Part shown: piece after piece, positions 6,368 to 64,000 of the stretch | Position numbering within the stretch: position 1 is the stretch's first letter | Layout: each line of letters opens with the position of its first letter | Assembly (NCBI GenBank): GCA_012295275.1 | Contig: CM022671.1 | Span: 31,930,001-31,994,000, forward strand | DNA from: Chrysomallon squamiferum | Taxonomy: Eukaryota > Animalia > Mollusca | Direction of reading: 5' to 3' | DNA: 64,000 bases | Program-made: the position numbers and the translations under genes | Notes under the pieces: model-generated | What the model was told of the DNA's origin: nothing | The model's database searches: none | Seen by the model: the letters and a program-made list of their open reading frames with translations, nothing else

Positions 6368-6407
<40 letters not shown>

Positions 6408-27536: not shown

Positions 27537-27738
27537 TCATCTGGGGAATTTTCTCATCCAGTAAGATCTGTGGACTGACGCTGTAGACTTTTTTTTCATT
27601 GGAGCTCCAACCATCAGGGATCCATTTTCATGGCTTCCAAAGGGTCCCACTTGTATCATTTCCCGCAGCCTCGAAGAATTGAGGTTGTAAGAGTCCTGAA
27701 CATTGTGTGTTTGGCCAGCAACAGTGTCTGGAAGCATC
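27537..27738 (-). CDS. Gene B terminal exon 37a (cytoplasmic tail)
   Basis: Acceptor tttttttctcag, phase matches exon 36; probable A8/A9 indel at 27589-27596. Confidence 0.75.
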
Positions 27739-30700
27739 CTGAGAAAAAAATAAAAGTTAATAATTAGCTGTAAAATATTACAATCTGAAATAACAGATAT
27801 TGATTGTTGTCGTTCATTATTATTATTATTATAACATATATTAGGTTATTTTAGTAATTATTTTTGTGTAAGATGATGACATTTTTTTATTCTTTTAATT
27901 TTTTCTTTTTTTCTTATTTAATTTGTGTTTATTGACATAACTTAAAATTCAGGCTTAATGATAAAAAAATAAAGAAGAGTAAAAATAAAACCAAATGGGC
28001 AAAGAAAAAAACCAACTAAAGAATTATGTATTTTAGTTTTAACTAAAATGATATTCGTATGTCATATTTATAGTATATGGATCAATAAAATAAATGTTTA
28101 GTCACTTGTTTCTGACAACTTTAATCTCACCTCAGATCTTGGATATAGTTCTGCGAAGAATAAACGTTATGCATTTTGTATTTCAGGTAGTATCTGAATG
28201 AAGCAGCAGCAATGAGAGCCAAGACAATGAGACAAGACACAACAATCACAGCAATGATGACAGCAGAGAGACCAGAATCAACTTGTGGGTTAACAAGAAC
28301 CTGAATGGTAATCGGATGACTGTAAGCATTATCTCCATCCTTGATGATGAAAGATACATTTGCTGAACCAGTGAAATTTGGAATATGATACAGCCAGAGC
28401 TGCTGTTTAGATATAGTACCAGGTGTTCCTGCAAAAAAGTCTTCTGTATCATATTGTTCTGAAGGTGATGGAGTTAATGAAAAGTTCAGAGTTGGTGACA
28501 GTTCTGGAAATATCTGGAAGTATGAAAGACTATCATTAGCGTCTGCATCTGTCATCCAGAAAGTGCCTACAAGATGTTTTGTTTTATCATTTGTGAGTTC
28601 TACCTCCACCAGTCTTTCTTCTGCAGAATTCAACAACAGACTGTCACTGGAATTTTGGAAAAACAGAGTTGGAGCATCATTGACATTGTCCACTATTATA
28701 GTGATAAATGCTGTAAGAGTGTGAGGCTTAGCACCTGGAACATTTATCACCTCAGTAGCAGATATTTCTATTTCATCAACACCAGTGAAATCCTGTTGAG
28801 GCATGTACTGCAACAATCCATCAAGAGAAACATTGGCTGTGCCGTGCTTGGGTTGAGTTTTTATAGCAAATATCAGCTCATCTCCTTCAGCATCAACAAA
28901 TTCAATTGAAGCCTTCAGAATATTATCTTCTTTACCATCTACCTTTGTGGTGACAATAGAAGGGATGGAATTACGAAGTTCAGGTCTAATTTCTACTACA
29001 ATGAAATGTCTAGGAGAAGACAAATCTTGGGTACTTCGTTTTTCATAGTTAGGATTCCCAAAGGATAATGATGCTTGTGTGAAAGCTTTTTCACATACCT
29101 GAACAAAAACACAGCTTGTTTAAAATGATAATAAATAGTATTTATAAAAAAAAAAATTATATTATCTGATATAATTCTTAATTTAATTTATAATAGATAT
29201 CTCAAAGTACGAGAACTGAAATAATGTTTGCAAAAATAATAATTTTCAGACATTTTAATAAAATGATATTCATAGGTCATATTTATAATACATGTAATAA
29301 TAATAATATAAACAGCAAATACTCTTGTTTCAGTTTGCTAAACAGAAATGTGGATATTCATATGCCAAAATTCAGTAATGACAACAATAACAATAATAAC
29401 AATAAAAATAACAATAATAACAGTAATAACAATAATAGTAATAATAACAGTAACAATGATATTTAATTAATAAATAGAACAATTACTTCAGTATGAAATG
29501 ATTCAGCAGTCAGGATGTTTTGGTTTTCCATACCACAAGGTTCCTGTATACTTCGCCATACCTGAGCATCTGAACATAAAATATAAAAATAATATTACTA
29601 ACATGTAGCTTAATATAAACAGTACATTAACAAAATATAATATTATTATAATGAATAATATAACAAGTATCTGTTTTATTGTCATCAATTATTATTAAAT
29701 TTGTTATATAAATATTAGTTCTGTTTATAAGGCTCTTCTCTAAAATATTATATTTAAAAATAAAATAAATTAGGATTTATAAAACAGGTTGACTATAATG
29801 AGAGAGCTGCAGATACTTTTATATAGTTTTAATAATTTGGTAAATGAAATAAAGTTTGTGTACACTAAAATATCAGAAAGCTATAAAATTTATTATCACT
29901 GCTGCTGAGAATTTTTTTTTCAGAATTTGAGATAGTTGAGTTTAAACCTGTAATTCAAAAAAACTTACGGTTATCCCAGTATATAAGAGTAGGTTCAAGT
30001 CCATGAGTTAAATTTGTTTTTTCCAGTTGCTTTGTCACATTTATTTTCTTTTTCAGTCTGATCTGTGGAACTGGGGCAAGGTAAAACATTGGTTTTTGTA
30101 TTGATACGAGTCTAAAAAACAAAACAAAATAAAACTAGATCAATAATATTTATTTAATATTTTGTCATATTTAATGTTTCTGTATGTTTTCATCTGTATA
30201 TGTGTGAATGTACATATGTGTGTGCATGCATGTTGTATCTTTGTATATGTAAGTAGGCACAGTGGAAAGAAAAATGAAACAGAAAGAAGAAAAATACATT
30301 GAAAAAAATTAAAATGTCTGAATGTTAAAAAAAGAAAAAAGATGAAAATAATTAAAAGAAGAATTTAAAAGTAAAAGAATAATAGAAAGGAAGAGAGAAA
30401 ACTCACCTGTCATGGAGAAATCTTGACAGTTGTTCTGACGTCAGTTCTGGGTCAGCTATATAAGGGAGATAACCTGCTGAAGCTGTTGAACCATACAGGC
30501 TCTGTACATCTGACTTCTCTAGAACACCCACAGTCAGACGACCATCATCAACTGAACAGAAAGAAAATTATTTCAGTAACAGAAAACAGATGTGTCTTGA
30601 ATTACAAAACATTTACAGTTAAAAGCTAAATCTTAAAGTACAAAATAAAATTATGAACAAACTAAATTGTAAGTTCAAAATAAAATTATGCAAAAATTAA

Positions 30701-33700
30701 ATATAACTCTGAAATTAAAGAAACATATTTGTGTAGCATGTATTAAAGAAACTGCTATTACTAAATATGTTGTTTTTGTAATTACCTTCAAAATCTAATT
30801 CAAGCTCTGGTTTTTCACTTGAACTGGTGGAATCATTTTCTCTTAATTCTCCTCTGGTATTCACAGTGAGGTGTGTTTTTCCTGTCATCAGCAGTTTGTC
30901 TTTCACTCCTAAATTTTTAAAATTAATTTAAAAGGTAGGACCAGATTTAGTTAAATATAAATAAAACACTAAAAAAGAACAACCCTGAAATTTACTTTTA
31001 AAACAAATAAATAAACACTTATTTTATTATAATATTATTGATAAAATGTAATGCAAATAAGGACAAAATCAAATGACTTTTGAAACTCATCTGAGGCTAT
31101 CAAATTATGAAATGTACATTCATGTTCAAACCTTAGAATCAAGTCACACAATAAATTAATATTTTGGGATGTCTTTAAGCTACAGCATGCTTTTCTAAAT
31201 TAAAAACATCATAGTAATTCAAAGTGCCACTAATGTTGGGTCACAGTTATACATAAACATATATAATAATAAAGAAAATTAAATATGTAGAGCCAAATAT
31301 TGATAATACAAACTAAATATGTAGAACTGTGTAGTGATAATTAAAAACTACATATGAAGAACTGTATGGTGATACTAAAAACTAAATGTAGAACAATCTA
31401 TTCATAATAAAAACTAAATATGTAGAACCATATACTGATAATAAACAGTAAATTTGTAGAATCTTATAAGGATAATGAAAACTAAGTATGTAGAACCATG
31501 TGTTGATAATAAAAACTAAATATGTAGAATCTTATATGTGATAATAAAAACTAAATATGTAGAATCGAATATTAATAATAAAAACTATATATATAGGACT
31601 ATATATATATATTGATAATAAAAAACAAAATATGTGGAATCTTATATGTGATAATAAAAACTAAATATGTAAAACCATGTATTGATAATAAAAAATAAAT
31701 ATGTAGAACTAAATATTGATAATAAAAACTAAATACATAGGACCATATATTGATAATGAAAACTAACTATGTAGATCCATATGTTGATATTAATCTGGAC
31801 ACTTACTTTTAATACATGATGGTTTTACATGGATCTCACTGTACAAATGTGATCTGCTCATAGCATAAAGTGACTGGTATACACAGCGACCAGGCTCTAA
31901 CATGAAGTGACTTTGTTTCTTTGGTGGTTTCTCTTTTTCCATATTTGTCACTGTCCGTTCAAAGAAGTCTGAAAGTCCAGGATTCTTGTCAGAACCATCA
32001 AGTCTCATTTCACCATTCACAATTCCAACATAACTCGTTTCTTTTCTGCCAATTCTCACCAAAGGGAAAATGTCGTGTGTTTCACTGGAACTGCCAATTT
32101 TCCATTCTGAAAAATTATAAATTGTTCTTGATAATTGTTATAGTTTGTAAATGTGTGTTTCTGTGTGTGTATGTATAAATACAGAGACAGCTATTATAAT
32201 GTCAATGAAAAGTAAAATCTGTAATCTAAAAGAAACAACTTAAAAAAAAATGTTATTCTTATTTTACTAAATTTTACAAAATGAAATATTTGAATAAATA
32301 TATATATTTTACGAATATAAATTTTACAAAATGAAATAGTTTACTAAATATAAATATTACAAAAGGAAATATTTTAATAACTATAAAAATTACAAAATGA
32401 AATTTGAGATCATTTTCAACATTACAATAAAAGTTCAGTTTAAAGAGTATCATTTATGAAAAAAGCATATTAAAAAAGAAAATATTTACCATAATATTCA
32501 GCACCTACAATACTGTTATTATCCCATGCTAGTCCAATTCTGTCTGTGTACTCTGTAATGACAACTGATTCATTAGTAAAATTTGAACTTTCAGAAAACA
32601 AGGACATGACTTTTGCATTACTTGTATCAGGTGAATTTATGTCCATTGTAAAGTTGCACGACTTCATGCTGCTTTGTCCAGCTCCATTTTGTACTTTAAC
32701 ATTCACAAAATATTTGTTCATATGAATTAGTTTACCATCAAGATTTCTGATAACTAAAGATTTGTTTGATGGAACAAATATGTCTGGCTGGATATCCTGT
32801 TTCCCTAAAGCTGTTCCGATGCTTACAAATGTAGAGACAATTCCACTGACATCTTCTCCAGCTTCCCATTTCACACTGACAGAGTTTTTGTTTCCTAGAA
32901 ACTGAACTGCTTCATCTGAAGAATAATCGGGGTCCAAGCATTTTACATATTCAATGTTTGGTGGAGAAGTGTCAACCAACACAGCGTCTGACTTGGAATA
33001 GGTCACCAAGCCAGCATAGTTTTCAACTCTGATGTCCACAAAGTATGTAGAGAGTTTAAAATCTTGGAAAGCTTTGGAAGAGTTCACTTTTGTTTCATTA
33101 GTTTGAACATCATCACTGGCTGATGCCAGAGTGAGGTTCTGAAGATCTAGTGTAATTGGAACTATGCCTTCAGGAAGCTTGCATGTGTCTAGACAAGTAG
33201 ACTCACATGATTTGTCACATAAATGACAAAATGTAGAATACTCTTGGAAAGGTACAATATTTGCAGTCTCATTTTTAGTGTCAGACAATCCAATTGATAT
33301 CTTTTTAAGTCCACTTTCAAGATCATAAAATGGAGCTCCATAAACACACAGAGGTTTTATGTGTTTTGGAATCCTGATACTTTTAACAAAAGCTTTAGTT
33401 TTAAATGGCTCAAATGGGTCAGTAACTGGTGGAACGTAATGATGGATGTTCCAGGTAAAGATGTTCAAAGAAATGTCATTGTTCAGTACCAAACCACTAA
33501 ATGATGCTTTCTCCATCCCATTCAGAAAAAATGTCACATCCCAGCTGGGCATGAAATAAACAGTTTTGTTATACAACATGAATTTAATTTCACTGCTGTC
33601 AATCTGGAAATCCAGTTCTAGTGTCTGAGTATGAAATTTGAATCTATCCTGAACCCAAATGATTACTTCTTGTGCACTGTTTACACTGTCTGATAGTTTC

Positions 33701-36700
33701 ATGAAAACACCAAAGTTAAAACCATGATTTACAAATGGAGTGCAGTCTGAGGAATTATCAGAACATTGTGCAAATTTTGCAAGCAAAACATCCACAAACT
33801 GGTTCGGGTGAATGTAATTATCTTCAGACATGTAATTAATTCCTGTGAGAATATTTTTCCCCAGAGCTGGTTTTATATTCACAGAGTAATTTCCACCAGT
33901 CAGTTTTAAGTGTTTAAAAATCACTGCCCCTTTTTCTATCAGTTTCAAAGTGGAGTCATGTTGCATCGCCAAATGAATTTGATCAGATTCCATAACTACA
34001 CTGCCATTTGAAAATTCTTCATCATCAAGGAATTCAACTGCATCTGGAATAATGTAACTTTCACTCTCAGTGTCATTTTTGTCATGTGAAACAATCAAGG
34101 TGGCTTGGATAGAATCGTTGTTTCTCTGGAAATATACTGGATGTTTCCAGTCACTTCCTGGATGAACTGAGCCAGAAAAAGGTGGAGACTCATCTAATTT
34201 AATTGGTTTTGACTGAACCAGAGTTTTAAGTGCAGCTGGGTTGTGTGCCTCGACTGAAATGTAGTATACCTGATTTACTTTTAGTAATATATCATTAAAA
34301 ACAGTTTTATTATCGTGTTTCACATTTTGTCTTTCTATTTCTTTTCTTGTGTCACTGATCACTGGTCCACCATCAGTGCACGGTTGTCCTTCTATAATCA
34401 CAGTGTAAAATTCAATGCCACTTTCCTCATCTTCAAAACCATGAAGATAAACAACAAGTTCGTTTGGTACATTTAAATACATCACGTCTTCATCAATTGC
34501 TCCTTGTATCTGAATATTACCAGCTGTTGGCGGAGTTGTGTCAACAACAATGGAGTGACTTCCCATCAAGAGGCAGATACCAGACTCATCATGAGCAATA
34601 AGCAGAATGTAGTAAGAAGAACCATGTGAAAGAGAAAGATTTGTAAACGTGTGCATCTGGTCAAGACCCACACTAACAAAATCATGAACATCGGCTGAAA
34701 TATTCATCTGCTTTATCTGACTACAAATAAACCTTTGGTTGTCATGGTGATGTGTGGAGATGCCAATATGGTATTCCCTTACACCAATATCAGAGTAAAC
34801 ACCAGACCATGAAGCCTGCAGAAAATCAGTAGCTGACTGCACTGGTTGGCATTCAACCACACCTGGAGTAAATTCTCCTGTAAACCCAACTCTTATACCA
34901 TTGGAGTATGCTTCCTGGAAACTTCCAGCCATGCTGTATGCCCTCACTGTTATGTAGTAAGTTGTTGTCTTTTCTTTCAGTTTTAGATTGTGGAATGTGA
35001 CAGACCTGTTCAACCCTACATTATGGAAATACATAATGTTTACTCTGGTGTCTGGAAACCTCCTGTCATTTCCAACAGCCACTTCAAAGTACCTGATCTT
35101 TTGAGATGGGTCAGCTGAACTGTCATAACCAAAACCGTTCCAATTAGCAGAGAGAGTATCATTGCTGTGTTGAAAGTTAATATCCTCTCCCAAGCCATCA
35201 TTGACAAAACCAGGATTTGGTGGCTGGATGTGAACCATTACACCATCAGAGCGACCAGTGAGTGTCCTGTTCATTGCATCCACCACTCGAACAACATTGA
35301 TGTATGTTTTCATGTTCTCCAGACGTAGTTCATCGTTGTAAAAGTCAAAACCTTTGTCTGGAATAGGATGAAAAGGCTGGATCACAAAACCAGAAATGTC
35401 TTCAACAGACCAGTCCACTTTCAAAGCAGGACATGCCTGAGAAAATGACCAGTGCCCTTGCATCACTGACAGATCAGTTTGTGTATCTTGATCTTCTGGC
35501 CCAGCACCATCACTTACCAAAACATGAATATTAGGACTGATAGAGAGGGCTTCTGATGAAGACAGGAGATAGAGTCCAGCTTTGTTGTAGACCTTCATTG
35601 TAACAAAAACTGTTGTCCCTTCAACAAGATGCAAATTCTTTAGTGAGACTATTCCATTAGTCAGATCAACTTTGATAAAATCCTTTACATCTGAAGCTCC
35701 TTTGATGCTTCCAATAGCTGCTTCATATCTAAAAGTTGTACCAAAAAATTCATGTTTATTAATTGTGTACATAACTTTACACATACACAAACACACAGAC
35801 ACACATATACACACATATAGGCAGACACAGAGATAGATAAGTACATTCTACCATCTGATAATAGCATTTTTATGCGATACCTAGATCATACAAATCTATT
35901 CAGTGCTGAAACATCAGCACTATTTTCAGAATGATAAAAACCACAGAAACCTGCAATTACCTACTTCTTCATTTACATTCTTCATTAAAACAATTACAAG
36001 TTTTAAAATCTAATACAATACCTGTCAATTCCAGATTCCTTATCTTTAAAGTCATGAACTGCAAAATCAATGTATGATGTTGGAATCTGGCATAATTGGT
36101 TCTGAAATTTATTAGCATGTCCAAAGCTGGTAACAATATGAATATTGCCATTTTCTGGTGGAGTTCTGTCTATAATAATCAGCTTGTGTATTTCTGTTTT
36201 AAGATGGATTTTGTTCATTATGGTCAAAGTGATAAAAAGTTTATCAATGTCCTTCTGCAAGACATCATTCATATCTCTGTTCCAGATTTTATGTAGTCGT
36301 GATACATTCTGAAGTGATACAATGTTAGAAAGAAAAGGCTGGGTCCCTACAGATATATACAGATTGCTGACTGTACTTTCATCATCTCCAATGGCATCCC
36401 AAGAACATTTAACATTTGATTTCATTGGTGATATAGCCTTGGTACATACAATGTTGTTTATGAATGGCTCTGTGGAATCGTAGACAATTGGGGCTGATGT
36501 TTTCTCAGCAATGTTGCCAGCCTTGTCAGTGGCTCTGATAATCAGAAACCTTGTATCTCCAGAAACAACAGAACCTTTATTTATCTTCAGACCTTCTTCC
36601 ATCCCATCAATACTTTTGAAATGATTCCTCCCAAATGGCATCTCATTCATTGACCATTCATAGAGTACAATTCCAGTATTGTCTGTTGCATTCCAGTCTA

Positions 36701-45700: not shown

Positions 45701-46084
45701 GCATCAATTTTACCTGCCACCCAGGGTATAACAACAATCTGCAACAAATGAATAAATGAATGTATAAAATGTGTTTCTTGTGTAAGTATGTGTGTGTGTA
45801 CATTTGCATATTTGTCTGTGGGGGGATGTGGGGGGTGCATGCATGTGTGTGTGTCAGCGAGTGCATATGAGCATGTGTGTGTGTGTGTGTGTATGAGTGT
45901 ATATGTGTGTCTGAATGTGTGTGTGTGAGTATATGTGTAAGTGTGCATAAGTGTATGCTCTGTATATGTGGAGGGTGTCTGGGTATATACAAGTGTGTGT
46001 ATATATGGATCGATGTGTCTGTGTGTGAGGGTGTGAGTATGGATTTAAGGATGTGGGTATGAGTTGTGCATGTCTGTTAGTGTA

Positions 46085-46138
<54 letters not shown>

Positions 46139-52100: not shown

Positions 52101-55100
52101 TTCTAGAATGTGGAATATTCTGTGAATCAAAAAGCTAGGCGATATGCATTTTCAAGAAAATACAAATCTTTTCATATATTGATATAAAATTATGAACCTA
52201 CCATGAAATATGTCCTAGTTATTTAAAATCAAGTTGGACAGCAGTTTTGTCTGTAATGTCTTCAAAACAGAACAGAACAAATGCAAGTTTCAGATTAATT
52301 TTTTTTTCTTTTTTTCCTGCTGTTTAATCTTAACTAATAACAATGTATAACAACAGAAATATATGGTTTACATACACCTGTATTTCTGTAGTTGTGATAT
52401 CATTAATACAGAACCGATCTATTTGATCTAATATTTATTCTAGTATCAAACAAAATATAGCTATCAGAATACTGTGTACACAGTGATAATAGAGTAAAAT
52501 GGAGCTGTTCATATGTTTTGTGGCAGTGTTATTTTCCTCTGAAACTTTCTTATTAGTGAAGACAGGTTTCCCAAAACAATGAAATTTTAGCTCAGAAGTA
52601 TAAAGAATATTATAAGACCATTTATTCATACCATGTGAAGTGTACTTTAATATTATGATATAATATCACAATTACTATATACTGAGTGAGCTACTGCATG
52701 ATTTCCTATCACAAATGCTGCACTGTTGTGTATAAAAGATAATGGTCTATGTATAAAATCACTGGTTTTAATGTCTCATTGTCAGTATAGCTCACCTTTG
52801 ACACCTAATTATTATTAATATAAACATGCACCATTTTTCATATTTATTGATTCACTGATTACTGAAGGATAATTAAATGTAATATAAAGAGACAATGTAA
52901 CTTACTCTTGATTGTTAAATATGTTGCCTAAATTTAGGGCCTTAAGAGAAAAATCTCCAAACATTGAGAGAAATCCTTCAACTGAAGACATCAGAGACTT
53001 GGGAACGGAGTCAAGCTTTTGTATTTCTTTCATTATAAGACCAGATGCAAATTTCACTGCTGCTCTTCCCAATTCTTTTAAAATTCTTTTAAATCCTTCA
53101 GTTAATTTACCATTTTCAAATATCTGTCCAATATGTTTGAATGTGAAATCTTTACACTTCTGGGTCCATTTTGGGACTATTTTTAGAGAATCTAGAAAAG
53201 GAGAAGGGTCAAGATAAAAACAACCACTGCTGTCATTGGTTTTCTTGCGCATGGCAACATGAATATGGCTGACACTGCAGCCATTGTTCCCAGCAGAAAT
53301 GCCAATATTTTTACTGGCTTCAACATAAATACCATCACTGTCCTTTTCTGGATACTCAGTGTTTGGAATTATATTAGATATAATGATTTCATAGTTTGAC
53401 AGATCAGACCCTACTGGCCTCAGAAGCAGAGAGCCGTCCTTTTCTTTGAACACCATAGCATTCACTGGACAAGGTATCTGCAAAACATGAAACAGATTTC
53501 AGCTTTTAAATTTTGTATACTTTTTTTTAGGTCATTAGAATTTCACAAAAAATAAAGAAATTATATAAGGTAATGGAGTACACATGAAAATGTGATAAAT
53601 ATGAAAACATAGTTTGACCCATATGACTTAATTTAAATTTTTTATAAATACCATTATGGTAAACTCAGGTTAGTCAAATATTTTATGTATTTTTCTCTTT
53701 TTTTCAGAAATTATGTCTGATTGGAGATGTATGTATGTATATATGCAGTATATTTACATGTGCTTGGAGATGCATGTAAACATGTATACAGTATATTTAC
53801 AAAGATTGGAGATGCATGTATAGATCTATGTATACAGTGTATTTATATGTGCTTGGATATGCATATATGTATACAGTATATCTGCATCTGCTTTGAGATG
53901 TAGGCATACAGAGTATTTATATATGCTTTGCGATACAGTATATCTGCATGTGCATTGAGATGTATCCATCTATGCATACAGTGTATTTATATGCTTTGAG
54001 ATATATGAATATATGTATACAGTATATCTGCATGTGCGTTGAGATGTATACTGGTTCTATACAGTATATTTGCATGTGCTTGGAGAAGCATGTATGTATA
54101 CATACAGAATATTTACGTGTATTTGGAGATGTATGTATGTATAGAGTATATTTACATGCTTGGAGATGCATGTATGTATACATATAGGGCATATTTGCAT
54201 GTGCTTTGTGATGTATATATGTATAGATACAGTAGATACAGTATATTTGCATGTGCTTGGAGAAGCATGTATATATACATACAGAATATTTACATGTATT
54301 TGGAGATGTATGCATGTATACAGTATATTTACATGCTTGAAGATGCATGTATGTATATATATAGGGCATATTTGCATGTGCTTTGTGATATATATATGTA
54401 TAGGTACAGTATATTTACATTTTCTTTGAAATGTATGTATCTATGTATACAATATATTTACAAGTGATTGGAGATGCACATATGTATGTATATTGTCTAT
54501 CCAAATATTGCAGCTCACATACTTATAACAATTTTTCTTCAAATATTTCCTGTGATAAAGACACACATGTTTTTAAACTAATTAAACTAATATTCTGAAT
54601 ATTTACTCTCCAATCCTTGTTGCTTTCTGAAATCAAGTCCACACCAGGTGTTGTGTATTTTTTACAGGTGTCTGTTGGGTAGGTACCACAACCACAAGTA
54701 TCATCACAGCCTTTTCTTTGACTAGGAAACTTTTCATAGAATTTGTTGCCAAATAAAGCATGGATTGTAGATTTAACTTTCTCAACTCTGAAAAGGAAAA
54801 GCACAAAGATACTTTCATTCATTTATATGAAGCTGTAAGACACAAAATGTATTTTGGGATGCAACACTATATAGTCACAGATCTGCTATTTGTTTGTTAA
54901 ATGGGACAGTTTGTATTATTATTAAAAAAAAAAAAAATTCAGTTTAATAAATATTAAAAGTAATGATATAAATACAAATGTTTTTTTTTTTTTTTAAAGT
55001 TAAACAATTTGAACAGAGTGACAAATTTTAACAACTAAAACAAAATGATAAACAACAAGGATATCTACGCTTCTTTAAAAGCCTCAAAAGATGACTTCAT

Positions 55101-56307
55101 CATTTCTGTAGCAATTTCTCGACTGTCAGATGCATCCTGAAATTTCTTTGGTGCTTGCTTTTGTATGTTTTCCAAATGTCCAACTAAAGTGTCCACAGCT
55201 TTCTGGATACTGGACGTTCCTTCTTCAACTGAATTACTCTGAAAAATAAGAAACATTCTTTTTAATAAATCCAAGTTTAAAACTACTGATGAATCCTAAG
55301 TAATTCATGCTTTATTGAAATCCCATTTTAAAATCAGCTGTAATTACCATTTAAAAGAGTTTGTTATATTTAATTTCTAACATCTGCTGCAGATTATATA
55401 TAACTTACAATCTGTGTTAATCCCATTTTGAATCCAGCAACAAATCCTGCATTCCTTTGTTTTGATTTTTCTTGTAACTTAAGACTGGCCAACTTCAACA
55501 TGGCAATCATATCTCCAATCTCCCCTCCATTTGACATCCATGTTGATTTGTCTCCTGTAAGAAAAAAAATTAATTAACTATTTCTTGTACCTCAGAAATA
55601 TTCACGTATCCATATGCACGTATTCAGCCATGCAGTCAAACACACACACACATACAAACACATATACATACAGATACACATTAAGCCCACACATAAACAC
55701 ATAAACACACACCTATATAACTGATATTCACAAATATACACACATGGACACAAATACACATACATGCACACAAACACAAACACATGCATAAAGTTCCTAA
55801 CCATCTCTTTTGACTTGTACTTCCATCTTTGACCATCAACACAATTTTATATGTACCATTTAAAAAATATATATATATATAAAATAAGTTTGTCTTATTT
55901 CATTAATAATTACTCATTTTAATTTCAATCTGATTTTCTATTCCATAATTTGAAACACATATAAGGAAATGAATGCAAAGTTTTAAGTTACACTAGCACT
56001 GTTTGTTTTACCTTTTAGCAAAGATGTTATCTCCCAAATAATTGAATTAGATTTTAACACTCTTGCCATTCCTAACTGATATCTGCAAGAGAAAGGACAG
56101 ACAATGTGCAATTTTTTTTGTATTTTAAATAATACTGTAATCTTTCATTCAAATAATTTATTAAAACAGAACATTAAAATAATAATATGAAATTAATGTT
56201 AGACATTTATGCAACTCATACTAAATTTTCTTTGTAATAAATTATTTTCAAACTATTCATTAACTGATGAATGCATAACTGCATCTTTGTTTATGCTGAT
56301 CAATATT

Positions 56308-56354
<47 letters not shown>

Positions 56355-59300
56355 AATAACTTTGACAGGAACTTAATAAGGCAAAAAAAATTTACTTTAG
56401 CCTTGTTTCCTCCAGTGCCCGGAATGACTGTGTTGGAGACTTAGCAATCTGATGCATTAGTTTTAAGGCATTATCGGTTGCGTCACTTATTTCTTTTTCA
56501 GCAAAAGGCAATCCAACCATAGCAACATCAGCAATGTTCTGTAAATACAAAATATATATGTATTTTGACATTCTTTCATTAAAATATGTTTTTATTTCAG
56601 TCTCTTTTTTTTTTTATATTGTTATCAAGTATATGGTTTTATTTTGATGTTTTTTTACTTTTTCATGAACTGATTAGTCTCTATTTGTCAATGACATTAC
56701 ATTCTCATCTAAAATCAAATTCAATTTGAAAAGCTTACAATTTAATATTACTGCAATCAAAACATAATTTTAAAAAACACAAAAACAAAACCATATATAT
56801 AAACTAGTATTCATAAGCAAAAGAATCTATACAAAATTATTTTTTATTCTATTAATGGAGAAAACTAAAGAAATATGTGAAAAATATTTTAGATCAGCCC
56901 CACTCTGATAAATGCAAATACCTTTTTATTTATAAATTTTTAAAAACTCATAAAATCTTTCAGTATTCTTTCTAGTTTGAAATTATAATTTGACAGAGTG
57001 AAATTAGTAGAAAAGAAAATATTCTGAAAATGTTTTGATGAAATGTATTCATCTCAGGTCTTCTCATCATGAACAGAAATTTAGTTTAACCTTTAAGCAC
57101 TATAAGCTTTTAAAACAATCAATACATACATTGTAAAAGTCCATGGCATCTGAATGAAGATCTTCTACAAGTGACTGTGCACTTTCAACTGTCTCCTTAA
57201 ACTTTATCATCCAAGGGAGACCACTGAACTGATTGGCAGTTCGTGTCAGGTTAAGTGCTGCATCCAGAGCTTTCTTGGTCAAGTTTGGAATTTCACTGGT
57301 AGCATTGACAAATGGTTCAAACACACTTTTCCTTATAAATTTGTTGTCAGTTTCTTTATCATCTGAAAACTGTTTGGCCATATCATTTGCAACATCAACC
57401 ATTGGTTTCATCATCTTGTCAACCATCTGATCAAAGGCACTGGAAATATCTTTTGCTAGATTCACTGAAAAGTCCTGAAATAAATGAAGATTTGCAGATG
57501 AGCCTGGAGTTTGTAGATGTGTTGCATTTTCCACAAAAAAAAAGGTCCACATACTCCTTTATTTACATGAAACAACTTTAATTTTAAATTATAAACTTAA
57601 ATAAATAAAATTAAATATTATAGTATGATACCTTATATATATTCATGTTGTATTCCAGTCGTCCTTTATAACAAACTTCTATCAACAAGATATCAAAATG
57701 AAGATCCAGCATTCCTACATGGGCCTCAGCAAACAATTTATCATCTACATTCAGATCTACAAAACCACTCAATGGTCCTGGCAGAAGAAGAATACAAATT
57801 TAGCTTAGTTTATTGAAAAGTATTAATATTTCATAACTGGAATAATTTCAACAAATATTCTATACAGACACACCAAAAAATGTCCTTCTCATATATATAT
57901 CTATCTATCTATGTATACATATGCATACACACATATTTTTTTGTTGAATATCAAATATAAATACTTATATTAATACTAATATAGGGACAAAACATAATTA
58001 AAACTGAAGAATTTTTTAGATTTTTATAGATATAAAATATAGTATGTTACTCTTTAAAATATTAGTACACATTACTTGTAAGAAGAGTATAAAACATTAT
58101 TATATATCAATGTTGGACCATTTATCAGGCTTCCAGAAAAAACAAATATCAGAAAACTGGTTTTAGAAGTCTATTAATCTGTATTAGTTAAATATAGTTT
58201 CATTTTTTACTTTATATTCTTTTGTTGTTATTGTGGGGTTGTTTTGTTTTTGTTTTTTTAAATTTTAAGTACAGATTAAGTTTTGGTCCAGAAAAATGGA
58301 AAATCCAGAATTAGCGGGTCACCTCAGTTTACTGGATAAATGGTCTGTTATCTATGTGCAAAACAGATGATCTTTATCAACAGAACAAATATCATTCCAA
58401 CAATAAATGAAATCTTACGAAATAATGCGTAAAGATGATTATCAAATTTAACCCCAAAGCTTGCTCCTATGTTTGTAGACCCAATGACTTTTGTCCACTC
58501 ATATGGTGGGATCTCCAGTTTGAATTCCAACAGAATTTTGTCAAGGAAACTTCTTTTGACCCTCATCACAGTGTGATAATTGTACTGGTTTCTGTCAATA
58601 TAAATTAATGTTGTAATAAAAGAAATTTTTTTTTTAAATGAGACAGGTTTTGTTTGTTGTTTGTTGATTCATTTAAATTCTTTTTTATTTCTTGCTATTG
58701 GCTATTACTTTTGGTGCTAATACTTTCAAATGGAAAGGAGTTACCCATTTTTATTATTATTTATTAATTGTGAATTAAAAAAAGAAAATTAAATGTTTTG
58801 GTAGATGCTTTCATAAATTAAAGTTAAAAATGGCATTAATTTTCTTAGTTTAACTTTTTTTCTTTCATTATTTCTTGTTTTTGGTTTCTATTTTTCACTA
58901 GTTTTCTGTGAAGTCTCGTTTTAAACAAAACTAAATAGACAATTCTTTTCTTGTCTAATGACATTACAGTGATAATATTTTTTTGAAATATGTTTTTTAC
59001 ATAATATATATAAAACATTCTGACCTCAGCAAGACATCACGGTGTGCAGCTGTAATTTCCTTTCCCTTTGGATGTTTTCTGTATTGTTCCCGAGCCATTT
59101 TTCTAACAGTTTCATCTTCATCAAACATTGCGCTTTCAAACAATGCCAGAGCACTCTGACAACAAACACCAACAAATGTAAATAAAATATTTAAAAAACA
59201 CTCTAATGGCTTTCAGTTTTGATCATAATATTGCCAACATGCATGTTTGTATTAATAAACAATAGTTTATCAGGAACCAGAGAAAGATCTCTTTTTCAAG

Positions 59301-62300
59301 TAAAATGAGATATCAACTGATTATCAGATTTAATGCAAATTAGGCTACCAAGTGGAGATATTGATGTAGGGGTGCTACTGTTGTTGTTGTTGTTGTTGTT
59401 GTTGTTGGCAGCAGTACCAAACAAATTAATAAAAAATAATTATATAATTATAATAGTATGTCACTCATATCATCACTATCATAATCACAATGATTATCAC
59501 CATTATCACCTTAACAACTATCAGAACCATTACCATCATAATAAATCATCATAATTATGTTCATAATAATAATTATCATAATTATGTTCATAATACTGAT
59601 CATGATTATTATAATCACCTTAATAATCACCATTATAATCACAACAATTATCATCATGATAACCCTAACCCTAACCCTAACCCTATTGATATCATCATAA
59701 TCAGCAGCATTTCATCATCATTATAATCATCACTTTAATATCATTATAATTGTTAGAGTTACTCACAGAGCAACATTATACTGCTATTATCATCATTCTA
59801 CAGACATAATCAATCCAAACATCAAAAACATTATTACAGTATAAAAATTGTAATGATTCCAAAACAAACCTCTGTACAATTATAGTGTCTCAGTGCTGTT
59901 ATGGCTGCCCTTTTCCATGCATGGTGAGCTGGGTTAGGGTGGGTGTGGGAGATAATGTGAGGCAGAGAGCGTTTCAGTGCAGCATTGCCTAAACTGTGAA
60001 TCAGAGTTGATCTTCCAAGGATGTACTCTTCTTCTTCATTTGTTATTTCAGTTAAAGGGACCGATCTTTTGACACGAATTGTAGCATTCACTGTAGTTAA
60101 ATATTAATTATCAAAATTTACATTGCAAGTTTACAACTGATTTTATGTAATTTGTAGGATTCACTGTTGTTAAATATTAATATCAAAACTTATTCATAGT
60201 TTACAATTGATTTTATGTAATTTGTAGCATCAGCTTAACTTAGCTGGATATAAACATAGATATTGTTTTATTATGTAACATTATGGAACAATTAAAAAAC
60301 AAAAATTTGAAAACTTAACAACTGTTTTAATGATTGCAAAGCATTTTTAACAAACTGTAATTTCAGTGATGTTCTATATTTTGAAAAAATAAAAAATATG
60401 CAGCATTAATTCTGTTTCATGGTAATCATATTTAAATTATATTTATACTGTTTACTAGATGCATTTTACATTTATATATAAAATAAGACTAATAGTTTCC
60501 AATGGTAATATGATCTTGATTGTTGTTATTTATTTATTTATTTATTTGATTATATTAATGAAAAAATCTTTAATGAAAGAATATGAATGAATTCAGATTC
60601 TCACATATGAAAATGTAAATAAATAAAAAAACAAGCTGCCCATTATTTCAAACATTTCTGACATATTTATAATATTTTAACATAACAATGAGTAATTTGT
60701 TAATGATTTACTCTGTCACTTTCAGAGTAAACAATCCACATCATATTGTTTTATGAGATTTCACTGACATGTTTGCATTTTGTTGTATCTAAATGGTGTT
60801 ATGGTTAACATTTTTACAGTTTACAATGTTTAGGGAAACTGGAACAAGGGAGATATAATTATATGACGTCACTGGGAGTATGCTTTAGTTTTTGTATGTA
60901 GCCATTTTGAAATGAAATAAATGTTTGGATACTAAAATGAATTTTATGTTTTTAATGATAAACGTAACACATTTAGTTATTGCTGCCTTGTTTTGTTTAG
61001 AAAAAAACATCATATTTTGGAAATGTATAAAATGTAATTATGCTACTGCCTTTGCAAATCAGTATCAGTATATTATATCTGTATTAAACCTATATAAGAT
61101 AATTAGCAAATCCTTGCTGGTCCACTTTGGTTTTGAAATCTACTTAGAGCTTTCATTAATTATTTTAAGTCTGTTTTTTTAATACAATTAATTTAAATGA
61201 TAATCAAGACAGAACATAATTAATTTGTTTTTACTGAAAGTTTAAGTAAAGAGATAAAATTCATATCTGGAAATGTACACATAATGAAGATTTTAAAACT
61301 TACCCTGTTTGTGTTTGTGAATCCAGCTTTCAATTTTTTCTACTATGCGTTCTGCCTCCAGTGTTCTTTCCTTGGCTAAGTTTTTAGCAAGTGAACCCAA
61401 AGCAAGACAAGCCCGCCGTTGTGTTAGTGTGAGATTCATAGACCCTGGTTTCAAAACGAAAACAGCATTCAAATCATCATTCTGACAATAAATTTTCTTC
61501 ATCTTTTTTTTTTTTTATGGGTTATTTTTTTATTTCTTTTTTTATTTAATTATATTTTGTTTTCTGTTGTTGTTTGTTAAAAATATATAATCTAAATTGT
61601 AAAAGGATTCAGATAAAATTATTAGACTGTATATATATATATTATCAGTAATTATTTCATTCACTGTTAATCTATAAATTAAATAAGTGATTTGAATAAT
61701 TAATAAGTAGAATTTATAAATTAAAATAAATTAAATTACAAAATACATTTTATAAAAAAATATAAATAAGCCAAAAGTAAAATACCATACCATGTAATGA
61801 ATTATTTACACCCAGGCAAAATCGTTCAATAGCTTCTAAAAAATCCTGTCAAAAAATTAATAATAATAATAATAATAATATATATATGCGTGTGTGTGTG
61901 TGCAGTGGAAACTGACAAAACCAGATCACCACAGTACCTTATAAAATATTCAGTATGAATGGGATGTATGTATGTATGTATGTATGTACTGTACAATTTA
62001 TGTCTCATTTTTAACTTTAAAAATCCCATACAAACCAAAAAGTTTAAATTTTATTGTATTTTTAAAACATCAAAGTTATATCATGAGTGTCACTGTGTAT
62101 GCTCAGGCATGCCAGAACCATCTCCATGTGAGTTATTTCACTATGTCTTATTTGCATGCTATTTTACATCTCATTTTCCCACCACTCTTGTTCTTTTCAT
62201 ATTCAGAATAATATTCATTCTTTTTCTTTAAAATATCTAATACTGTTGAAGTGCCAATTAACAATTTCTCAGCTAACAGTTTCTGATTTAATTTGGGTAT

Positions 62301-63968
62301 ATATGTAGATCACTTATTAAATTAATTTTGGATTTTAATGAAAATTCAATTCGCTGGCATTCTGGTTACTGTTGACTAGATATTTTATAGAAATTGATGT
62401 TTGTTTCTACATCTGCACTTGTTTATGTGCATCTATTAAATAAATGATAAAATATGTGCATAGTTGATGTTTACATTTGATTTGTAAATTGTGAATAAAA
62501 TGTTACAACGAGTAGGGGGCTATGTCACTTTTAATTTGTTTGTTATCAACTCCATAAATCCATGAGATAGTTAACAAATTTTATCATAATATCATAGTGA
62601 AGATGTAAAACATGATTATGGATGTAAGGCACTAAGAAGTCCAACCATACTGATAAGTACAATAAACACCAATCAATGACTAATTACCAGACAGCCAGAA
62701 TGTCTGATCTGTGATCTCACCATAGTGTAACAGTAGAAACTGGGTCCCCTGCTGTTTCCAATCAGGTAGCCAATTGAGTTTACCTGGCTTACAGTTTGTC
62801 AAGGGTAATTAACAAATAACTCAAGCCTCTGGGGATGAAAACTGATCCAGTAATCATAATATACAGGATTCGGTTTATTAAAGGTTTTAATACACATAAT
62901 GTATACATGTAAATTCAGGACCTAACATGGCCGGAGTAGACGGTAATCCAGGATAACCAGTGACCAGTTTTGCCAGTTTCCACTGAATATTCACATATAT
63001 GTATATTTAAGGAACAGTCAGCAAATTCTGAAATAAATTTCCTTCTCAAACTAATCAGCATTAAATAATTTATGAAAAAAAAAAACTGATAAATAAATAC
63101 ACTGGAAATATTTGAAAAAACAAAATAGTAAAAAACTGTTGAAGGAGAAAATTTAAATAACTATTGATCAGTCTTAAAGATTCATGCTTTAACATCTGTA
63201 ACAACTCACCTGTGTTGGTTTCTTGATTACAATGCAGTGTACAAACACTCTTCTGATCTCATCCTGATCTGGTTCAGCAACATTCAGCACTTCTTTCAGA
63301 ATAATCTGCTGGGACACAACATCACCTGCTCGAGCCACCAAATCAATGTACACACGTCGAGTTTCTTGACACCTCTCGTCTTTGGAACTGCAAGTTTTGT
63401 TTAGAGTTGACTCCACATGATCATGATAGTCTGATTCATAGAGACTCTGCAGCAAAATTCTGATGTTTTGAATGCATGAAGAACGATTTGCATCAGCTGG
63501 AATGATAAAGCAGTAATTGAAATAATAAAAGAAAAAAAAAGATGATTTTTATTAATATTAATCTCATAGAAACTCTTAAAGAGTAATTTCCATCTGCTCA
63601 CATTCAAGTAGTAATTGAAAATTTTTTATTTTAAATATAGTATGGTTATGTTGGAGTATGCAGAGAATTACATTTTTAAGTAAAATACATAATTTTACAC
63701 ATATAAAAAAATAATACTAATTTGCCAATTGATTCCCAGAATCATTACCGTATTTAATTTGGTTGATTTATTAATAATTTTATTTAGTTATATTCAAAGT
63801 AAAGAGATATAAAGAAGATAAAAAGATGAAGATGAATACAGATATAATAAGCTTTGTGAAACATAAACATAAATATAGGAACTTACTGATGTCAGAGATG
63901 TTATGGACACATTCCATGTTTCCTTCTATATGAGAAATAACTTCATTCAGTCGTTTCTTTTCTTCAGT
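27537..63968 (-). CDS. Gene B (5'-partial): giant type I membrane protein, LLTP/vitellogenin-like + LECT2/M23-like + PAN + FN3-like repeats + Big_9/cadherin-like + TM
   Basis: 37 exons joined with consistent phases, 13,695 nt (4,565 codons) in window; continues beyond 64000. Confidence 0.88.
28131..29098 (-). CDS. Gene B exon 36: Big_9/cadherin-like Ig module + TM helix
   Basis: DAEGDELIF...QPKHGTANVSLDGLLQYMPQQDFTGVDEI...VDNVNDAP; TM LSAVIIAVIVVSCLIVLALIAAASF followed by RYYLKYK. Confidence 0.9.
29487..29569 (-). CDS. Gene B exon 35
   Basis: HAQVWRSIQEPCGMENQN...; phase 1-0. Confidence 0.75.
29969..30111 (-). CDS. Gene B exon 34
   Basis: LVSIQKPMFYLAPVPQ...YWDN; donor GTAAGT. Confidence 0.8.
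30407..30551 (-). CDS. Gene B exon 33
   Basis: Acceptor tctgttcag, donor GTGAGT, open frame, phase 1-2. Confidence 0.8.
30786..30908 (-). CDS. Gene B exon 32
   Basis: VKDKLLMTG...LDFE; phase 1-1. Confidence 0.75.
31300..31790. repeat. ~34-bp minisatellite (AACTAAATATGTAGAACCATATATTGATAATAAA)
   Basis: More than a dozen diverged tandem copies in an intron. Confidence 0.85.
31807..32106 (-). CDS. Gene B exon 31
   Basis: EWKIGSSSE...KPSCIK; donor GTAAGT. Confidence 0.85.
32490..35728 (-). CDS. Gene B exon 30 (3.2 kb, FN3-like repeats)
   Basis: 1114-aa ORF with DTTPPTAG, DESPP and DTSPP repeats; acceptor acttttag. Confidence 0.92.
36022..37460 (-). CDS. Gene B exon 29
   Basis: 481-aa ORF with the same repeats; acceptor ctttcag. 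Confidence 0.9.
37703..38391 (-). CDS. Gene B exon 28
   Basis: LVDKTTPVPG...DTTPP; donor GTAAGA. Confidence 0.9.
38420..39710. repeat. Extremely AT-rich degenerate tandem repeat (ATATAATTTATTTTAAATA-like)
   Basis: Recurring motif and very few G/C over ~1.3 kb of intron. Confidence 0.65.
39834..40018 (-). CDS. Gene B exon 27
   Basis: YQWGVGTKPNIDDIVPY...VSDG; phase 2-1. Confidence 0.85.
40520..40685. repeat. ~24-bp degenerate tandem repeat (CATGGATCCAGGACATCCACAGAT)
   Basis: Several copies visible. Confidence 0.65.
40965..41142 (-). CDS. Gene B exon 26
   Basis: IDRTPPEVGHVYDG...WIDFFDAESGIA. Confidence 0.85.
41550..41745. repeat. ~28-bp tandem repeat (TTTCAAACTGAATCATACTTTTAACTGA)
   Basis: About seven diverged copies. 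Confidence 0.7.
41764..42297 (-). CDS. Gene B exon 25
   Basis: ANWDGFHDDESGIWGY...DTSPP. Confidence 0.9.
42728..42822 (-). CDS. Gene B exon 24
   Basis: KIIDGPGSKTVFNGHKP...; phase 2-1. Confidence 0.8.
43678..44874 (-). CDS. Gene B exon 23: furin site, FN3-like repeat and PAN/apple domain
   Basis: KRHKR; QCARKCIDYGKKCISFDYETHTETCDLHE matches the PAN C-x3-C-x6-C-xSF-x-Y...C pattern. Confidence 0.9.
45581..45738 (-). CDS. Gene B exon 22
   Basis: IVVIPWVAGKIDASLS...; donor GTATGT. Confidence 0.8.
45780..46140. repeat. (GT)n-rich microsatellite region
   Basis: Long TG runs. Confidence 0.9.
46214..46284 (-). CDS. Gene B exon 21
   Basis: QFSAGGAIGTKFRAKTESVKSLVR; donor GTAAGT. Confidence 0.8.
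46700..47060. repeat. Probable interspersed repeat remnant (AAGGGCCATAACTC motif on minus strand)
   Basis: Motif plus AAAATGGCGGCC recalls common mollusc non-autonomous DNA elements; no family assignment possible. Confidence 0.35.
47325..47496 (-). CDS. Gene B exon 20
   Basis: LDSQPRQLYAEF...FPVGPFIFKI; donor GTAAGT; weak acceptor (A-run + TCTAG). Confidence 0.7.
47723..47973 (-). CDS. Gene B exon 19 (two furin-type sites)
   Basis: HLRTKRS...GREKRQ; donor GTGGGT. Confidence 0.85.
48092..48941 (-). mobile_element. Truncated Academ (AcademX-type) DNA transposon: one TAG terminus, ~160-bp subterminal repeat x2, transposase fragment
   Basis: Minus-strand terminus TAGTCTGGTTGCCAAACC (Academ ends are TAG..CTA); fragment RAEREADWPHHLWAV..MMPYFFASAHFNYARY...RHKPGLWNGIWSDMWIET; duplicated block 48481-48630 / 48642-48793. 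Confidence 0.75.
49478..49654 (-). CDS. Gene B exon 18
   Basis: SKDLFSPGIK...KVNYT; phase 1-1. Confidence 0.8.
50200..50465. repeat. ~42-bp degenerate minisatellite (AGGCCTAATACTTATGACTTTT...TTTTATGTTAT)
   Basis: About six copies. Confidence 0.7.
50585..50788 (-). CDS. Gene B exon 17
   Basis: CPEFRNG...CSADDDCLGVVCET; donor GTATGT. Confidence 0.85.
51788..52065 (-). CDS. Gene B exon 16
   Basis: EHMKNFFDEI...; donor GTAAGT. Confidence 0.85.
52906..53477 (-). CDS. Gene B exon 15: C-terminal part of LECT2/M23-like domain
   Basis: IPCPVNAMV...IGIS...SHIHVAM...LDPSPFL. Confidence 0.9.
53720..54500. repeat. ~40-bp minisatellite (ATACAGTATATTTGCATGTGCTTGGAGATGCATGTATGT) with a ~178-bp higher-order duplication
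   Basis: Tandem copies; ~54058-54230 nearly repeats at ~54236-54410; source of spurious ORFs. Confidence 0.88.
54607..54787 (-). CDS. Gene B exon 14: N-terminal part of LECT2/M23-like domain
   Basis: RKGCDDTCGCGTYP...TPGVDL resembles LECT2 RxCDxxGCGxY...HxGVD. Confidence 0.85.
55069..55238 (-). CDS. Gene B exon 13
   Basis: SNSVEEG...AFKEA, amphipathic helical; phase 0-2. Confidence 0.8.
55409..55554 (-). CDS. Gene B exon 12
   Basis: DKSTWMSNGGE...GLTQI; donor GTAAGT. Confidence 0.8.
56012..56082 (-). CDS. Gene B exon 11
   Basis: YQLGMARVLKSNSIIWEITSLLK; phase 2-1. Confidence 0.75.
56396..56538 (-). CDS. Gene B exon 10
   Basis: NIADVAMVGLPFAEKE...; phase 0-2. Confidence 0.8.
57130..57474 (-). 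CDS. Gene B exon 9 (amphipathic helical region)
   Basis: DFSVNLAKD...MDFYN; donor GTATGT. Confidence 0.85.
57632..57777 (-). CDS. Gene B exon 8
   Basis: PLSGFVDLNVDDK...CYKGRLEYNMNIYK. Confidence 0.8.
58107..58354. mobile_element. Short degenerate MITE with GACCATTTATC-type inverted ends
   Basis: GGACCATTTATCAGG at ~58116 versus reverse-complement CAGACCATTTATCCAG at ~58346; homologous to 3712-3808. Confidence 0.5.
58419..58591 (-). CDS. Gene B exon 7 (RVKR furin-type site)
   Basis: NQYNYHTVMRVKRSFLDK...; donor GTAAGA. Confidence 0.85.
59025..59155 (-). CDS. Gene B exon 6
   Basis: SALALFESAMFDEDETVRKMARE..., matching the D-x-D-x-x-V-R helix end seen in LLTPs. Confidence 0.85.
59870..60090 (-). 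CDS. Gene B exon 5: LLTP/vitellogenin-N helical motif
   Basis: LIHSLGNAALKRSLPHI...WKRAAITALR resembles the LLTP LxALGNxG...RxAAxxALR motif; RVKR site. Confidence 0.85.
61304..61444 (-). CDS. Gene B exon 4
   Basis: TQRRACLALGSLAKNL matches the LLTP A-x-L-A-L-G-S-L helix; donor GTAAGT. Confidence 0.8.
61791..61845 (-). CDS. Gene B exon 3
   Basis: DFLEAIERFCLGVNNSLH; phase 0-1. Confidence 0.75.
61903..62985. mobile_element. pogo/Tigger-like MITE (~1.08 kb)
   Basis: Inverted ends CAGTGGAAACTGACAAAACC and GTTTTGCCAGTTTCCACTG; TA target sites degenerate. Confidence 0.7.
63210..63496 (-). CDS. Gene B exon 2 in window (LLTP helical domain)
   Basis: RRVYIDLVARAGDVVSQQII...KKPTQ resembles LLTP 'lDal..aGt..s' and 'PT' motifs; donor GTGAGT. 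Confidence 0.85.
63887..63968 (-). CDS. Gene B first exon in window (internal exon)
   Basis: Acceptor ttttacag, TEEKKRLNEVISH..., donor GTAAGT. Confidence 0.8.
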
Positions 63969-64000
63969 CTGTAAAATCAATGTAAAGAAAATTTGTTTCA

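Follow-up and report, generated by a model that had tools for sequence, protein, structure and literature searches.

Introduction

The large lipid transfer proteins (LLTPs) named in the available text of PMC10799875 and PMC12214520 are all soluble, as are vitellogenin, apoB, apolipophorin, MTP and dLp in the papers cited here, and immune roles have been reported for some LLTPs of the vitellogenin, apolipophorin and apoB type (PMC12214520). In MTP the lipid-binding site lies between two sheets, the C-sheet and the A-sheet, the strands of the A-sheet being twice as long (PMC6717300). Two enzyme folds that also enter the present account have defined catalytic signatures: active M23 peptidases require the motifs H(x)nD and HxH, with degenerate M23 folds serving as binding modules (PMC9662197), and the catalytic motif of GH16 is GEIDIXE (PMC8949617). 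Here we analyze a gene of the mollusc Chrysomallon squamiferum whose product we place in the LLTP superfamily, in a conserved and apparently undescribed branch that has a predicted membrane anchor and combines likely binding domains in an unusual way. The window under study is the whole stretch of 64,000 nucleotides (nt) at positions 31,930,001 to 31,994,000 of contig CM022671.1 (assembly GCA_012295275.1), AT-rich eukaryotic DNA with short introns, and the gene occupies 27537..63968 of its minus strand, on which all parts of the gene given below lie.

Results

The gene model was obtained from tblastn matches of relatives, a search for splice sites and reading of the sequence, and comprises 37 exons with 13,695 nt coding for 4,564 residues and a stop. 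All 36 introns have GT-AG ends and the frame passes through every join without an internal stop, with an identity of 42.3% over 4,450 aligned residues to the single-chain relative P0001, which agrees with the original prediction, made from the letters of the window, of one frame of more than 4,500 residues; the places it gave for three of the domains also hold (helical lipid-transfer domain at 63947-58576, M23-like domain at 54771-53145, PAN domain at 44156-43911). Exon order is colinear with the single full-length proteins P0001, P0002, P0010, P0020 and P0029, and the best protein matches come from abalone, oysters and mussels. Exons 1-9 lie at 63968-63887, 63496-63210, 61845-61791, 61444-61304, 60090-59870, 59155-59025, 58591-58419, 57777-57632 and 57474-57130; exons 10-18 at 56538-56396, 56082-56012, 55554-55409, 55238-55069, 54787-54607, 53477-52906, 52065-51788, 50788-50585 and 49654-49478; exons 19-27 at 47973-47723, 47496-47325, 46284-46214, 45738-45581, 44874-43678, 42822-42728, 42297-41764, 41142-40965 and 40018-39834; and exons 28-37 at 38391-37703, 37460-36022, 35728-32490, 32106-31807, 30908-30786, 30551-30407, 30111-29969, 29569-29487, 29098-28131 and 27738-27537. 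A direct join of exon 2 to exon 4 was dropped, the 55-nt exon 61845-61791 being matched by orthologues. Since the alignment to P0001 begins only at its residue ~281, about 270 N-terminal residues are placed beyond position 64000; judged by this alignment, the signal peptide and the lipid-transfer beta-barrel (~270 residues in orthologues) are outside the window and the protein is 5'-incomplete here.

Four RNA runs of one study contain 28-48% of the words of 32400-38400, and RNA contigs from three of these runs, and from one run that also covers introns, were placed on 46650-53700. Contigs spliced at the modelled exon ends cover junctions 15-16 and 18-19 in three runs each, 17-18 and 19-20 in two runs each and 16-17 in one run. 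Loose contig ends agree with the last letters of exon 14 (30 of 30) and, in X2, with the first letters of exon 21 (29 of 30), which brings the RNA-supported junctions to 7 of 36 (14-15 to 20-21), in the least conserved part of the gene. By length alone, one contig has 2,652 nt ahead of exon 15, where exons 1-14 together amount to 2,292 nt, and another extends 1,194 nt past exon 20, reaching the end of the PAN domain; a contig spanning the whole gene was not seen among those placed on 46650-53700.

The head of the protein is predicted to be a large lipid transfer (LLT) module of the LLTP type. Its alpha-helical domain (58576..63947, residues 8-311, exons 1-7) is 45% identical to the Vitellogenin_N region of P0001 and is assigned the fold of the sponge record P0213. 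The Pfam profile PF01347 (Vitellogenin_N) is above cut-off in five of ten relatives scanned (P0001, P0002, P0020, P0029 and P0040). Taken one by one, the window exons that code for the LLT, M23 and sheet regions had no Pfam match of relevance, so that the names LLT and M23 depend on the orthologues and on the sponge fold. An AlphaFold model of P0213 (548 residues, 31 rows, mean pLDDT 75) places a beta-barrel before a helical superhelix, the latter corresponding to the Vitellogenin_N region of the relatives. With this model, the first 11 ranks in Foldseek go to lipovitellin, MTP, vitellogenin and apoB alone (E from 4.5e-15 to 6.1e-9, the next match having 1.5e-4), and VIA-align gives apoB a Z of 20.0, lipovitellin 19.4, vitellogenin 17.4 and MTP 16.7, with the next chain at 12.3. 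These alignments cover 421-459 residues at a root-mean-square deviation (rmsd) of 10-16 A, and they start at residue 22-30 and include the N-terminal barrel, a part that in the present gene is outside the window.

Two amphipathic beta-sheet regions complete the head. Sheet I (57460..58527, residues 328-417), likely the C-sheet of the LLT module, is among the best conserved segments at 60% identity to P0001, and sheet II (44748..47409, residues 1288-1434), likely the A-sheet, consists of long alternating strands. Hydrophobic conservation alternates along both, and no other part of the protein has beta-moments as high. Matches to MTP_lip_bd below threshold fall at sheet II in P0049 (E 0.017) and P0086 (E 0.18), at the same profile positions, among 15 proteins scanned. 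From their position, sheets I and II are likely MTP-type C- and A-sheets parted by an insert of ~870 residues. Neither vWD nor DUF1943 was matched in ten full-length relatives (E<=0.1) or in 20 frames of the window (E<=1), the lack of vWD being in line with the original prediction. Sequence searches of the PDB with exon 30, P0001 and the GH16-like stretch (see below) alone returned no LLTP and no GH16, and a family profile of 12 sequences returned no LLTP, with weak matches to M23 (E 0.097) and LECT2 (E 0.57). A search for short head-like proteins gave one 101-residue fragment from a crowded candidate list. Exon 20 (47325-47496), which contributes to sheet II, is very polymorphic: over its 172 nt, X2 differs at 16 places, X1 differs at 9 and has three inserted letters as well, and one RNA run changes five adjacent residues on the first strand of the sheet.

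The ~870 residues between the sheets hold amphipathic helices, an M23-like domain and a six-cysteine domain. In helical region A (55101..57447, residues 422-693), 39% of the 11-residue windows have a helical moment above 0.45, and sub-threshold matches to ApoLp-III were found in 2 of 15 homologues. The M23/LECT2-like domain (53145..54771, residues 710-875) is named from Pfam M23, which is above cut-off in P0033 and below it in P0001, P0002 and P0040. It reads TTPGVD in place of HxxxD, one zinc ligand thus being lost, and keeps HxH as HIH at residues 835-837. Among 31 M23 domains of the family, HxxxD is kept in 7 and HxH in 11, with both motifs intact in the five gastropod records P0010, P0186, P0187, P0188 and P0190. 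Judged by these motifs, the domain here probably binds rather than cuts. Helical region B and the six-cysteine domain of unknown fold (47969..53135, residues 879-1176), a region with exon joins seen in RNA, follow, and the six cysteines are invariant in 33-34 family rows.

Beyond the head lies the stalk (31807..44603, residues ~1483-4009), built from FN3-like repeats, about 19 in number, that close with DxTPP-like motifs. Of the "many DxTPP repeats" originally proposed, literal DxTPP-like motifs number just 12, while a repeat profile built from the DxTPP-ending segments gives 19 units across residues 1483-4009. An AlphaFold model of exon 30 (1,079 residues, mean pLDDT 79) contains FN3-like sandwiches and an inserted domain, and its Foldseek and VIA matches include FN3 proteins. 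The repeat profile places both a PAN/apple domain (43911..44156, residues 1632-1713; Pfam PAN_1 E 3.8e-4, just under cut-off) and a GH16-like domain each inside one FN3-like unit. Proteins of bacteria and cnidarians and headless animal proteins contain 17-25 copies of this stalk repeat, which is therefore best seen as a widespread spacer. The bacterial or metagenomic giants P0012, P0007 and P0011 carry 19-25 copies and no head. A recent bacterial origin of the gene was rejected, as bacterial proteins such as P0012 have the repeat type alone in common with it, and a scan of prokaryote genomes with exon 25 gave 74 pattern matches, none of them confirmed, and no relative.

The GH16-like beta-jelly-roll (33352..34050, residues 3391-3623), which the original prediction had missed, is recognized by predicted structure, profile and alignment. 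The top 27 VIA rows are all GH16-type glycanases and transglycosylases (best Z 15.2, rmsd 3.1, 175 residues aligned), a sequence profile of 19 rows matches lichenase 3wvj (E 3.1e-4) and three related chains (E 0.006-0.01), and a 12-row profile aligns to the GH16 blocks flanking the active-site strand. This strand, placed by inference between the two aligned blocks, reads G-F/L-G-x-Q/H in the family and FNFGVFM here, without catalytic glutamates. The catalytic E-x-D-x(x)-E is absent from the window domain, and 7 of 70 GH16-like domains of the family hold it somewhere, never as a conserved column. The GH16-like and M23-like domains are thus likely, by their motifs, to be disarmed enzymes.

The chain ends in a module at 28292..28990 (residues 4212-4444) that scores 37.1 bits with Pfam Big_9 against a cut-off of 23.6. 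The original prediction had called it a bacterial-style Ig domain, for which a cadherin-like pair is the likelier reading: the profile matches Cdhr2 (E 1.7e-7) and protocadherins, and about two cadherin-like units with the acidic motifs DAEGD, NVNDAP and DADAND can be made out, so that the name Big_9 is no sign of bacterial origin. A single transmembrane helix, the one hydrophobic helix predicted here, follows at 28208..28264 (residues 4454-4472). Of 64 records that have both Big_9 and a membrane helix, 62 carry an EGF pair ahead of the helix, a pair that is absent here. The last exon exists in two copies: the proximal one (27537..27738) gives a tail ending in KFPR, and a distal one (26324..26492), which lies outside 27537..63968, has an AG acceptor, its own 3' flank and the right phase and would give an alternative cytoplasmic tail ending in VEIEI. 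The distal end resembles those of P0187 (TKVEI) and P0016 (KIDV), and the proximal copy reads the homologous end in another frame. By the usual rules for NPxY and PDZ motifs, NPxY/F is present in 20 of 66 family tails and PDZ-like ends in 14 of 48, against a background of 8.8%. The lipid-transfer head, the M23/LECT2-like domain (amended by its lost zinc ligand), the PAN domain, the FN3-like stalk and the membrane helix of the original prediction are all supported by the evidence given above.

Furin cleaves at R-x-K/R-R. Such sites occur in the window protein at residues 194, 316, 1178, 1214 and 1458, none of which lies beyond the border of the head. We counted them in 40 rows of alignment A6, leaving out five coral-like rows and using only rows with both flanks. 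RVKR (58552..58563, residues 316-319), at the boundary of the helical domain and sheet I, is matched in 21 of 21 rows, among them the sponge. RHKR (44667..44678, residues 1458-1461), at the boundary of head and stalk after sheet II, has the full motif in 17 of 39 rows and KR or RR alone in 15 further rows. The motif is present before Big_9 in 25 of 36 rows, and at the three other sites in 9/19, 6/27 and 12/34. The background in the stalk is 6 in 91,907 residues, and the conservation of the sites above it suggests that the precursor is likely cut into several chains. Release (shedding) of the head, as the sites are placed, is possible.

With regard to distribution, 25 of 214 stored proteins have the helical domain, sheet I, M23, sheet II, PAN, GH16-like insert, Big_9 and membrane helix in one record, always in the same order, and 15 of these also have the barrel. 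They span four phyla, with gastropods, bivalves and an argonaut among the molluscs, the acorn worm Saccoglossus (P0210), lancelets, and Oopsacas, a glass sponge (P0073, P0214). P0186 is a frame of 5,143 residues on a Logan contig of 16,087 nt, which leaves no space for introns, so that it is most likely one transcript. The lancelet variants P0040 and P0041 bear Sushi and C-type lectin domains, P0040 being without a membrane helix, and several copies per genome are indicated by three Oopsacas records with close locus tags. Among 120 of 139 matches listed there were no vertebrate, arthropod or nematode names, a word-based search that cannot prove absence, and the ESM Atlas gave no usable match. 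Most record names are "uncharacterized" or "hypothetical", with a few automatic labels such as "CRB-like" and "Apple domain-containing" and none characterised. Searches aimed at the family in the main texts of open-access PMC and bioRxiv papers brought up no description of it. The architecture therefore seems undescribed, as had been proposed; it is not peculiar to this genome, being present in public databases for many marine invertebrates, and it has no characterised name.

Other ENA records touch on this family. P0088, P0097, P0101, P0104 and P0106 form a second subfamily of frames of ~4,000 residues, several on contigs of 12-29 kb. These contain the stalk as well as both sheets and the LLT helical domain; their helical insert is longer, M23 is not matched and no membrane helix falls within the called frame, and they are likely one giant exon of a coral-like host. 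P0095, whose source may be a eukaryote other than an animal, combines the stalk and Big_9 with a TNFR-type cysteine module, a hydrophobic helix and, as judged by eye, a GH16-like stretch.

The window also holds a second large gene at 4444-20323 on the plus strand, tail to tail with the first, which is a headless relative with the same FN3-like repeats. Its exon 1 starts with a hydrophobic signal-like stretch and cysteines, and the gene is colinear with proteins of ~3,400 residues from lancelets and a sea star (best P0089, ~30% identity). Within intron 18 of the minus-strand gene, a high-copy repeat at ~48000-48900, where depth in X5 rises to ~4,800, contains a tandem pair of 162 bp, matches DUF6589 weakly (E 0.0014) and is probably a transposon remnant. 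A short frame at 62151-62309 has a weak helix-turn-helix match (E 0.078) and resembles what we take to be a transposase fragment, and intron 5 contains four copies of the telomere-type unit TAACCC at 59660-59685.

Discussion

The reading that we tentatively favour, and consider quite possible though short of probable, is that of a convertase-processed cell-surface receptor capturing lipid and microbial wall polymers. It would be a type I membrane protein, predicted from a single gene, whose head would bind lipid in an MTP-like pocket formed between sheets I and II, the insert of ~870 residues being looped out. The M23-like domain would bind peptidoglycan-like ligands and the GH16-like domain beta-glucans without cutting them. 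Furin-like enzymes would cut the precursor into several chains that may stay together or be released, and the stalk, which at the size of one FN3 unit would be tens of nanometres long, would hold the binding domains off an epithelial or phagocyte surface. Captured material could then be taken up, aided by NPxY/F or PDZ-type tails in some members, and such a receptor would serve both feeding and immunity. The capture of microbial material seems reasonable since M23 and GH16 folds act on microbial and algal walls and both are without catalytic residues here, and further hints come from the lectin-tailed lancelet variants, the several copies per genome, the NPxY/F tails and the residue changes among RNA alleles. 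It also has a precedent in the crustacean dLp/HDL-BGBP, a furin-cut LLTP that yields a glucan-binding protein (PMC8416765).

Several points weigh against such a receptor. The receptor function is an inference, and a common fold says nothing of the ligand. The LLT fold was predicted on the sponge relative and not on the window protein, and with P0213 the TM-scores of the top four LLTPs are low (0.37-0.39) at the large rmsd given above. The MTP_lip_bd matches are under cut-off and come from just 2 of 15 proteins scanned. The GH16-like domain is just 30% identical to P0001 and is variable across the family, and glucan binding by a GH16 fold is not assured because GNBP3 binds glucan via its N-terminal Ig-like domain (PMC8949617). 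The window protein itself has just KR before Big_9 and a tail without NPxY, and the family rows used in counting sites include close kin and are not independent. Finally, the altered codons of the RNA alleles change the residue in 8 of 11 cases in exon 20 and in 6 of 9 in exon 15, counts that cover 14/16 and 9/11 differences and whose source could be paralogues.

Of the other explanations, a lipid-transport precursor is possible though somewhat doubtful. While an LLTP is being loaded with lipid, the anchor would keep it at the surface or within the secretory pathway, furin would release a lipoprotein-like particle, amphipathic helices would wrap lipid, and the M23-, GH16- and PAN-like parts would serve docking and not microbe recognition. 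The LLT fold, the amphipathic sheets and long amphipathic helical regions, the furin-type site between head and stalk, the weak ApoLp-III matches and the coral-like ENA relatives, in which head and stalk persist, the helical insert is much longer and M23 is missing, are all consistent with this, but it leaves unexplained the 3,000-residue stalk with its glycan-type domain, the lectin-tailed variants and the allele variation of sheet II, and molluscs already possess vitellogenins and apolipoproteins (PMC10799875). That the protein instead acts in adhesion or as a matrix component (between cells, for gametes or in a mucus layer), with the LLT head as a protein-binding scaffold no longer carrying lipid, seems unlikely to us. 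The strict hydrophobic alternation in sheets I and II and the 60% identity of sheet I are expected of a selected lipid-facing surface, and conserved cleavage sites would weaken a load-bearing tether, even if the cadherin-like pair with its acidic motifs, the EGF pair of most members, the 19 FN3-like repeats, the 56 NxS/T sites and the adjoining headless relative with the same repeats would suit such a role.

We regard it as quite improbable that M23 and GH16 form a surface-bound digestive enzyme complex which hydrolyses bacterial and algal walls while the head collects the freed lipid: the five gastropod records with both M23 motifs, together with the intact HxxxD of 7/31 and HxH of 11/31 domains, speak for it, but the protein at hand has TxxxD and, at the GH16 catalytic position, the altered strand described above. 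Very little credence can be given to the idea that annotation has fused two neighbouring genes, one for a secreted LLTP and one for a membrane stalk protein. It is true that 9 of 34 records with the helical domain and M23 are without Big_9 or a membrane helix, and that no RNA contig was seen over the whole gene, the contigs having been placed on 46650-53700, short of junctions 21-36. Against this stand the 36 in-phase joins without a stop, the RNA at 7 of 36 junctions that splices M23 into sheet II, the contig that continues 1,194 nt and by its length reaches the end of PAN, and the 25 single-chain records in four phyla with the intronless P0186, which argue for one gene as originally predicted.

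A bolder form of the receptor reading, which we hold to be doubtful as a whole, would date the branch back to sponges, with an apparent loss in vertebrates and in ecdysozoans, and would have the disarmed M23 and GH16 domains of a furin-processed receptor catching microbes and the MTP-like pocket taking lipid or lipid-anchored microbial molecules. If true, a sponge-old receptor would connect feeding on microbes with innate recognition and with the way in which animal lipoproteins arose. A membrane-anchored branch would add a new architecture to the LLTP family tree and bear on whether lipid-transfer modules worked at cell surfaces before circulating lipoproteins arose. The joining of lipid-binding, peptidoglycan-type and glucan-type folds offers a direct way to test how microbes are captured and sorted by invertebrates that feed by filtering or on deposits, and in farmed oysters, mussels, scallops and abalone the gene is a candidate for a part in nutrition or immunity.

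Relation to described proteins

The layout of the head is most like that of the MTP large subunit, in which a barrel and helical domain are likewise followed by two sheets and no vWD. The strands of sheet II are longer than those of sheet I, as are those of the A-sheet relative to the C-sheet in MTP (PMC6717300), and the weak MTP_lip_bd matches fall at sheet II. MTP, an LLT module alone, is ~890 residues long, soluble and PDI-bound, whereas here the sheets are ~870 residues apart, furin-type sites lie within the module, and 3,000 more residues of stalk and a membrane helix are added. Vitellogenin, apolipophorin and apoB share the LLT barrel and helical folds and proteolytic processing, but the present protein has a membrane anchor, and its ten full-length relatives have no Pfam match to vWD or DUF1943; in place of the vitellogenin set of LPD_N, DUF1943 and vWD (PMC10799875), the chain ends in Big_9 and a membrane helix.

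LECT2 shares the M23 fold, as judged by Pfam in relatives and by the weak profile match. The domain of the present protein differs in being internal to a giant chain and in the residue lost, which is the zinc-ligand His of HxxxD, whereas LECT2 is described as being without a catalytic His. The GH16 beta-glucanases, betaGRP/GNBP and factor G share the GH16 jelly-roll, the sequence here being nearest to bacterial lichenases, but the present domain has no GEIDIXE and is inserted in an FN3-like repeat of a membrane stalk. The crustacean dLp/HDL-BGBP precursor, likened here by its description, is similar in its ~4,800 residues, LLT N-terminus, furin sites and yield of lipoprotein chains and a glucan-binding protein (PMC8416765). 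It differs in that it circulates and that LPD_N and DUF1943 are the only domains named in the available text of PMC8416765, where M23, PAN, an FN3 stalk and a membrane helix, all of them present here, are not mentioned. By analogy, we take the dLp/HDL-BGBP precursor to be the closest working counterpart of the protein described here.

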